64,000 nucleotides of DNA from Oscillospiraceae bacterium. Its GTDB lineage: Bacteria; Bacillota; Clostridia; TANB77; CAG-508. The notes under the pieces were generated by a model. It was not told the origin of the DNA. It did no database searches and saw only the letters and a list, made by a program, of their open reading frames with translations. Shown in pieces: positions 61,070-61,232 of this stretch. The number at the start of each line of letters is the position of its first letter. Position 1 is the first letter of the stretch. The DNA lies in NCBI GenBank assembly GCA_009785865.1, contig WQVL01000001.1:58383-122382 (forward strand), in the 5' to 3' direction. Made by a program: the position numbers and the translations under genes.

Positions 61070-61232
61070 AAGAAGTAGAAGTATATTTTTAAAGTTACAT
61101 AGTTATTGGTTTGTTCTAATATTACTACTAGTTTTTGCCATATAACTTAATGACCGTAACGTGCCATGGAGCATCCGCCGAAAATTCGATAACTCCTTCC
61201 TCGTCAACCCTTGAGTGGGCTCAGGCGCTTTG
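61070..61232 (-). ncRNA. glmS_ribozyme: glmS ribozyme (GlcN6P-dependent self-cleaving riboswitch) in the nagB leader
   Basis: Minus strand reads AGCGCC...TTGACGAGGAAGGAGTTATCGAATTTTCGGCGGATGC, matching the conserved glmS core CGAAUUUUCGGCGGAUGCC; ends about 40 nt upstream of the nagB RBS. Confidence 0.75.

Follow-up and report, generated by a model that had tools for sequence, protein, structure and literature searches.

We analysed a 64,000-nucleotide stretch of bacterial DNA, hereafter the window, in which a glmS ribozyme lies in the leader of a gene encoding a divergent NagB-family protein of 268 amino acids (60227-61033, minus strand; NCBI MCL2382710.1). A cmscan search with Rfam 15 placed the RNA at 61091-61240 of the minus strand (read as 61240-61091) as a match to RF00234, the glmS ribozyme family, scoring 83.0 bits against a gathering score of 37 (E 1.4e-17), and the match was untruncated, spanning model positions 1-167 of 167. 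The other Rfam matches within the window were two tRNAs only. The motifs AGCGCC, GACGAGG, UUAUCGA and UCGGCGG are intact in this ribozyme and in those of the three other lineages described below, and self-cleavage is predicted between A and GCGCC of the first motif, at the A61229/G61228 bond of the minus strand. The initial annotation had reported a conserved glmS ribozyme on the minus strand directly upstream of a NagB-family gene, and had proposed an RF00234 covariance-model search as a check; the full-length match with a score above the threshold bears this out, and the core string that it quoted, TTGACGAGGAAGGAGTTATCGAATTTTCGGCGGATGC, sits at 61207-61171 of the minus strand. The coordinates that it gave, 61070-61232, do overlap the ribozyme, although they are offset from it, extending beyond the 3′ end of the match by 21 nt and missing the outermost 8 nt on its 5′ side. 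Judged by its sequence, the window RNA belongs to RF00234 in all features tested but one, the identity of the downstream gene: members of the family lie in the 5′ UTR of a glmS gene, and here the downstream gene encodes a PF01182 NagB-fold protein. The glmS ribozyme uses glucosamine-6-phosphate (GlcN6P) as its cofactor, and its scission leads to fast mRNA decay and repression of the gene (reviewed in PMC5473149).

The 3′ end of the ribozyme is separated by 57 nt from the start codon of the NagB-like gene (ATG at 61033), which is preceded at a distance of 5 nt by the ribosome-binding site AAGGAGG (61039-61045, minus strand). An intrinsic terminator, consisting of a long stem (AAAAACUACCCG...CGGGUAGUUUUU) and a subsequent U-run, is predicted at 60125-60174 of the minus strand; the fold of the RNA from 60235 to 60110 on this strand reached −29.4 kcal/mol (z = −5.9), and none of 200 shuffles was equally stable. 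Because this hairpin lies directly 3′ of the NagB-like gene, the unit is monocistronic, with a gene for a SleB-like cell-wall hydrolase downstream, past the terminator, and with rpsO, then pnp, as divergent upstream neighbours. On the 5′ side of the ribozyme, a candidate sigma-70-type promoter (TTGCAT, 17 nt, TAATAT; 61290-61318, minus strand) was read by eye. It is weak and fails a consensus scan, its −35 hexamer matching at only 3 of 6 positions, and it would put the start of the transcript approximately 55 nt 5′ of the cleavage site.

A Shine-Dalgarno-like purine tract, AGGAAGGAGG (61247-61256, minus strand), was found 23 nt 5′ of the cleavage site, with a two-codon mini-ORF, ATG TTG TAA, on its 3′ side (61243-61235, minus strand); in L006, a locus of another lineage, GTG TAA comes after the corresponding tract. 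Each of the four distinct ribozyme leaders contains a GGAGG or GGGAGG tract 23-39 nt 5′ of the cleavage site (in the others at L008 ~176-181, L004 ~5727-5733 and L006 ~2039-2044), within flanks that cannot be aligned; GGAGG has a background frequency of 5.9e-4 per nt per strand across the window. The tract is possibly a 5′ stabiliser of the STAB-SD type, which cleavage would detach from the body of the mRNA.

The ribozyme-gene pairing recurs in four lineages of a rare clade

Proteins closely related to the window protein are rare. Among 5.8 billion protein clusters, eight belong to its clade, being 68-79% identical to it, and the next matches outside these eight fall to 38% identity. One distant member, P0043, which carries the N-terminal extension of the clade, was added by an exhaustive HMMER search of 1.84 billion representatives; there the clade representative scored 551 bits, P0043 266 bits and everything else at most 142 bits. 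Over this and the cluster search together, scores were 516-551 bits within the clade and at most 175 bits beyond P0043. No member was detected in 185,579 GTDB species-representative genomes, in which the nearest GlmM proteins were at most 70% identical and came from uncultured gut Clostridia, and the JGI metagenome contigs yielded a single member, locus L003, a duplicate of L006. The branch leading to the clade is long, which fits a change of role. The arrangement had been called uncommon, and with eight clusters and one distant member known for the clade, we agree.

We examined contigs for all nine clusters of the clade. RF00234 matches were found directly upstream of the gene in four of them, namely P0001 (the window, L001 and L002; 83 bits), P0005 (L008; 100.6 bits), P0008 (L004 and L005; 96.2 bits) and P0007 (L006 and the near-identical L003; 77.6 bits). 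The proteins of the other three ribozyme lineages (L008, L004/L005 and L006/L003) are 68-74% identical to that of the window. No RF00234 match at E ≤ 1, and no match to a core-motif regular expression, was obtained upstream of the gene in P0002, P0003, P0004, P0006 or P0043 (L007 1-1053, L009 1-236, L010 403-736, L011 497-733 and L092 135-325). P0006 has the same kind of divergent rpsO context as the window, with an intergenic region of 235 nt from which the RNA is absent. In a neighbour-joining tree, the four ribozyme lineages are found on both sides of the basal division within the clade, so that an ancestral linkage followed by later losses is the simplest history; on this sequence-based phylogeny, the association looks ancestral. 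The five lineages without a ribozyme, in turn, indicate that the role of the enzyme is independent of the RNA. Among the ribozyme-less lineages, the higher-GC P0002-4 have a common ribosome-binding-site context, AAAGGCGGTAAC, and GC-rich hairpin repeats upstream. P0043 and P0008 were recovered from the same two samples (ERZ27257346 and SRR6219231), and one organism might carry both as paralogues.

Base pairing in the RNA was assessed on an alignment of the four distinct ribozymes only, hand-trimmed to the known Rfam structure. In this alignment, 96.1% of the pair cells held standard pairs, compared with 32-54% when the partners were slid; two-sided changes occurred in 8 of the 32 pairs, and the covariation score was reached by none of 500 shuffles. 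The spacing between ribozyme and ribosome-binding site is likewise kept, at approximately 50-60 nt. Since the leader around the ribozyme cannot be aligned between lineages while the RNA has been kept, the RNA itself is under purifying selection at this position.

The protein has the NagB fold and an altered pocket

The 268-residue protein matched the Pfam family PF01182 (Glucosamine_iso) over residues 32-242 with 44.1 bits against a cutoff of 27, and TIGR00502 (nagB) with 155.1 bits, which is under the equivalog cutoff of 236.9; it also fell far under the cutoffs of the remaining NagB and AgaI models. A profile of the clade matched E. coli NagB (1cd5) at E 5.9e-45. An AF2 model built from 33 homologues reached a pLDDT of 93.3 and a pTM of 0.91, and with this model the best 21 Foldseek matches in the PDB were all GlcN6P deaminases, at TM 0.75-0.83 and 26-34% identity. 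The open reading frame is intact and identical across three assemblies. NCBI labels the protein a 6-phosphogluconolactonase; lactonase structures and models matched far worse than NagB, at 11-18% identity, and we rejected this label. No similarity to E. coli GlmS was detected, and the architecture of GlmS (a glutamine amidotransferase and two SIS domains in about 600 residues) is absent from a protein that has 268 residues and only PF01182.

The initial annotation had described a 268-residue nagB-like homolog. The family and the fold hold, whereas a standard NagB is contradicted by the equivalog score and by the loss of the phosphate-binding Arg and Lys, and for these reasons we term the protein NagB-like rather than NagB. 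The further label of GlmD-like is a misnomer, given that the protein has the PF01182 NagB fold only and no SIS domain. Archaeal GlmD is a SIS-domain enzyme akin to the isomerase domain of GlmS.

In a comparison of the clade with twelve canonical NagBs, the catalytic residues D72, H143 and E148 of E. coli corresponded to D94, H157 and E162, all three unchanged throughout the clade; the TG(N)SP phosphate loop is kept as well. Around these residues, the clade has diverged. It has an N-terminal extension of 23 residues of its own, which is predicted to be structured (pLDDT 90-96), a deletion of five residues after the MDEY motif, and GGTGEEGH where canonical NagBs have G-x-G-x-[DN]-GH. At the position of the lid arginine (E. 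coli R172, S. mutans R159), the clade has F, A or S, and R persists in P0006 alone; the adjacent F173 of E. coli has become an invariant D; and K208 (S. mutans K194) has become D or N. In S. mutans NagB, R159 and K194 hold and guide the phosphate of GlcN6P (PMC8369159), and their loss in the clade therefore means that its substrate may differ. The positions of K208 and of S. mutans R127 vary in the nearest canonical relatives too, so that the loss of R172 alone is truly clade-specific.

With these replacements (R172 to F/A/S, F173 to D, K208 to D/N, and GEEGH), the pocket of the clade appears more acidic than those of characterised NagBs, and new invariant basic residues, R91, H172 and R173 in clade numbering, were noted as well. 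The pocket changes lie at protein residues 91, 154-155, 172-173, 186-187 and 195 (gene 60227-61033, minus strand). As far as the sequence goes, the acidic pocket and the new basic residues could form an ammonium site or another way of holding the phosphate.

GlmS, glmM and the gene neighbourhood

Pfam scans of all open reading frames of at least 150 residues revealed no GlmS-like coding sequence in the 64-kb window, and tblastn with E. coli GlmS gave no window match even at E = 10, in agreement with the earlier statement that no GlmS lies nearby. A further 7 kb beyond the window, covered by the independent contig L001, was also devoid of GlmS. The gene for the next pathway enzyme, glmM (phosphoglucosamine mutase), does occur at 53497-54864 on the plus strand, as previously annotated, with a TIGR01455 score of 537.6 bits against a cutoff of 447.55. 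It is 5.4 kb from the NagB-like gene and on the opposite strand, and the two are not co-transcribed. At 80 glmM loci of the closest available genomes, which are those of uncultured gut Clostridia with GlmM proteins at most 70% identical, no ribozyme core, GlmS or NagB-like gene was found within 10 kb of glmM, and these loci thus do not bear on a displacement of glmS in situ.

The gene neighbours of the clade are housekeeping and cell-wall genes: rpsO-pnp, a SleB-like gene, PBP5, a G5/3D protein, SpoIIGA, SurE and a tRNA ligase. No copy examined had nagA, a transporter or a NagR-type regulator beside it. Because the canonical NagB controls P0035 and P0010 likewise stand alone, we place little weight on the neighbourhood as evidence against a catabolic role. 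The sporulation genes in the window, comprising the spoIIIA operon, SpoIIP and the SleB-like gene, mark the host as an endospore-forming Firmicute.

Several other features of the region were recorded. Five conserved genes, recJ, relA/spoT, dxs, one for an AMP-binding ligase and argS, are each split into two open reading frames in different frames (321-2032, 2151-4266, 25379-27267, 27981-29865 and 49437-51180). In dxs, an extra C interrupts GAT-GGA-GAA, and the split of argS recurs in L001, an independent ENA MEGAHIT contig; the splits are either assembly or consensus errors or real decay. To the right of the window, approximately 4.4 kb beyond its end, lies a T-box leader (RF00230; L001 5305-5554, minus strand) that scored 95.5 bits, just over the gathering score of 93. 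Its placement is odd, directly 5′ of a glycosyltransferase family-2 gene on the opposite strand (L001 5554-6813), and a PALP-domain gene of the same strand lies just before it (L001 4286-5158). Directly after thrS, an open reading frame of 772 residues (21699-24017, plus strand) had no Pfam match at E ≤ 0.001. An NAD salvage cluster at 9635-12257 encodes an NAPRTase, a NadD-like protein and a 269-residue NAD synthase, and a second nadD is located near glmM (57151-57675). The NAD synthase has no glutaminase domain and is therefore presumably ammonia-dependent, which fits an ammonia-rich lifestyle. Ammonia-dependent NadE is common in Firmicutes.

Discussion

The ribozyme and the protein that it precedes can be joined in a simple scheme. 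The NagB-like enzyme would convert fructose-6-phosphate (Fru6P) and free ammonium to GlcN6P, which would supply GlmM and cell-wall synthesis. GlcN6P, once accumulated, would bind the ribozyme as cofactor; the leader would then be severed at the A61229/G61228 bond, the remaining coding part, with its 5′-OH, would be degraded, and synthesis of the enzyme would stop, a negative feedback identical to that which normally governs glmS. The NagB-like gene would thus occupy the place of GlmS under the ribozyme by non-orthologous displacement, and its product would be either the only source of GlcN6P or an ammonia-dependent second route. This scheme takes the RNA to be active in cleavage with OFF as its outcome, the enzyme to work in the aminating direction and a GlmS to be absent or redundant, as we infer from the arrangement of the locus.

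The reaction between Fru6P plus NH4+ and GlcN6P is reversible, and the catalytic direction cannot be read from a sequence. The regulation speaks to this direction. If GlcN6P shuts off the NagB-like enzyme, the feedback is coherent only if the enzyme raises GlcN6P; a catabolic deaminase under the same ribozyme would be self-defeating, since its substrate would repress its own removal and scarcity would induce further depletion. The reasoning that GlcN6P-triggered destruction of the mRNA suits only a GlcN6P producer is sound, and its basis is the published OFF mechanism (PMC5473149). Several findings weigh against the aminating model: the Arg and Lys with which characterised NagBs bind the phosphate are missing from the clade, five of its lineages have no ribozyme, and amination of Fru6P was not observed for the NagB of Akkermansia muciniphila, which has no GlmS, in physiological conditions (PMC5902328). 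Taking these together, we assign a probability of roughly 0.5 to the reading that the gene encodes an ammonium-dependent, GlcN6P-forming enzyme under GlcN6P feedback, serving as a non-orthologous stand-in for GlmS or as a supplement to it. The stronger proposal, that GlmS has given way entirely to a dedicated ammonium-dependent GlcN6P synthase in one lineage of uncultured spore-forming gut Clostridia while the glmS ribozyme was retained, and that the acidic, remodelled pocket is an adaptation for amination at physiological ammonium, is offered tentatively, and we doubt it more than we believe it.

The divergence of the protein might instead reflect a NagB fold and chemistry turned to a different substrate or product, such as another amino-sugar phosphate or a compound with its phosphate elsewhere or absent, with the ribozyme still reading GlcN6P as a signal of the pathway. 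The TIGR00502 score of 155 bits against the equivalog cutoff of 236.9 would agree with this, as would the replacement of R172, K208 and F173 (the phosphate roles of R172 and K208 being those described in PMC8369159), the 23-residue N-terminal extension, the five-residue deletion after MDEY and the long branch. We nevertheless consider such a change of substrate rather unlikely: the clade retains the TG(N)SP loop along with its catalytic residues (Asp, His and Glu), the top structural neighbours of the predicted model are all GlcN6P deaminases, the positions of K208 and R127 vary in the nearest canonical relatives as well, and no alternative GlcN6P-feeding reaction is known for the NagB fold.

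It is the ribozyme, rather than the enzyme, that would have to behave unusually if the protein were an ordinary catabolic deaminase. Cleavage would then strip an inhibitory leader or leave a stabilising 5′-OH, and GlcN6P would thereby induce its own breakdown. NagB is catabolic in nearly all bacteria studied, the conserved Shine-Dalgarno-like tract could be an inhibitory or decoy element removed by cleavage, and a glmS may exist elsewhere in the genome; set against this, mRNA decay with repression is all that cleavage by a glmS ribozyme has been documented to cause (PMC5473149), the host is a spore-forming Firmicute, from the group in which the decay mechanism was worked out, the clade copies examined have no nagA, transporter or NagR-type regulator next to them, and the clade is not a standard NagB. 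Such an inversion thus seems to us improbable. The RNA might also be a leftover of a rearrangement that removed glmS, no longer cleaving or mattering. That the gene does without it in several lineages, and that several apparently frameshifted genes of the window hint at decay or at assembly errors, could be cited for a relic, but four lineages retain it at full length, at 77-100 bits and with compensatory changes, in a leader that has otherwise diverged past alignment; the near-invariant core motifs are all intact, and the spacing to the ribosome-binding site of approximately 50-60 nt is kept. We regard a relic as very improbable indeed.

Under the preferred reading of a GlcN6P-forming enzyme, the conservation of the ribozyme 5′ of a NagB-fold gene constitutes regulatory evidence that a relative of NagB is a natural GlcN6P producer, evidence such as is routinely relied on in assigning riboswitch-linked genes. 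If true, this would add to bacterial amino-sugar and peptidoglycan synthesis a second entry that depends on ammonia and is independent of glutamine, and it would represent a non-orthologous gene displacement beneath a conserved riboswitch. Should the replacement be complete, the metabolite-sensing RNA would have kept its metabolite through a swap of the enzyme family that it controls. Genomes with NagB and without GlmS, such as that of Akkermansia, which metabolic models now call GlcNAc auxotrophs, would have to be reread. The ribozyme and the enzyme would also form a compact, directly testable RNA-enzyme pair, and the NagB-like enzyme could serve glucosamine production without the cost of glutamine.

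Comparison with known systems

To our knowledge, amino-sugar synthesis for the bacterial cell wall is taken to begin with GlmS, as a step both universal and essential, and the glmS ribozyme is regarded as a glmS-specific element and an antibiotic target. The class is likewise presented as regulating glmS in a review (PMC5473149). The available portion of a riboswitch regulon survey gives RF00234 as a known GlcN6P-sensing motif, with 44 in its table, and mentions no target other than glmS for it (PMC3766115). The pairing of the ribozyme with nagB or a deaminase was not described in the reviews and full texts searched, a set to which the main census papers did not belong.

The enzyme can be compared with several NagB-family systems. 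Bacterial NagBs (E. coli 1cd5 and 1dea, B. subtilis 2bkv, S. mutans 2ri0) have the same fold, with TM of about 0.8 and 26-34% identity, and the NagB-like protein also contains their MDEY Asp, the His and Glu of GH(L/I)AFNE and the TG-x-(S/T)P loop. Unlike them, it is encoded outside a nag operon, and where bacterial NagB is induced by amino sugars, the NagB-like gene lies under an element of biosynthetic feedback. Overexpressed NagB can supply GlcN6P in vivo when ammonium is high. In E. coli, glmS was reportedly suppressed by derepressed nagB, as Vogler et al. are said to have found in 1989; this suppressor is a laboratory case, being neither a natural arrangement nor a dedicated enzyme. The gut bacterium Akkermansia muciniphila lacks GlmS and depends on GlcNAc, and its NagB formed no GlcN6P under physiological conditions (PMC5902328). 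Its NagB is the sole candidate for a link between Fru6P and GlcN6P and, unlike the window gene, has no ribozyme; the presence of NagB in the absence of GlmS is therefore by itself no proof of biosynthesis. A precedent for the anabolic use of a NagB-family enzyme is provided by Gln6Pi of Giardia and Entamoeba, anaerobes of ammonia-rich guts, in which it is used to convert Fru6P to GlcN6P (PMC3581238). In contrast to the window system, Gln6Pi is eukaryotic, is induced transcriptionally during encystment and has no RNA sensor.

For the RNA, the closest counterpart is the canonical glmS ribozyme of Bacillus, Clostridia and other Gram-positives. The RNA family, the core motifs, the helices and the position in the 5′ leader, some 55 nt ahead of the ribosome-binding site, are common to it and the window RNA, as presumably are GlcN6P-dependent cleavage and the ensuing mRNA decay. 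The difference lies in what is controlled: the canonical ribozyme governs GlmS, composed of glutamine amidotransferase and SIS domains, whereas the RNA of the window precedes a PF01182 NagB-fold gene.
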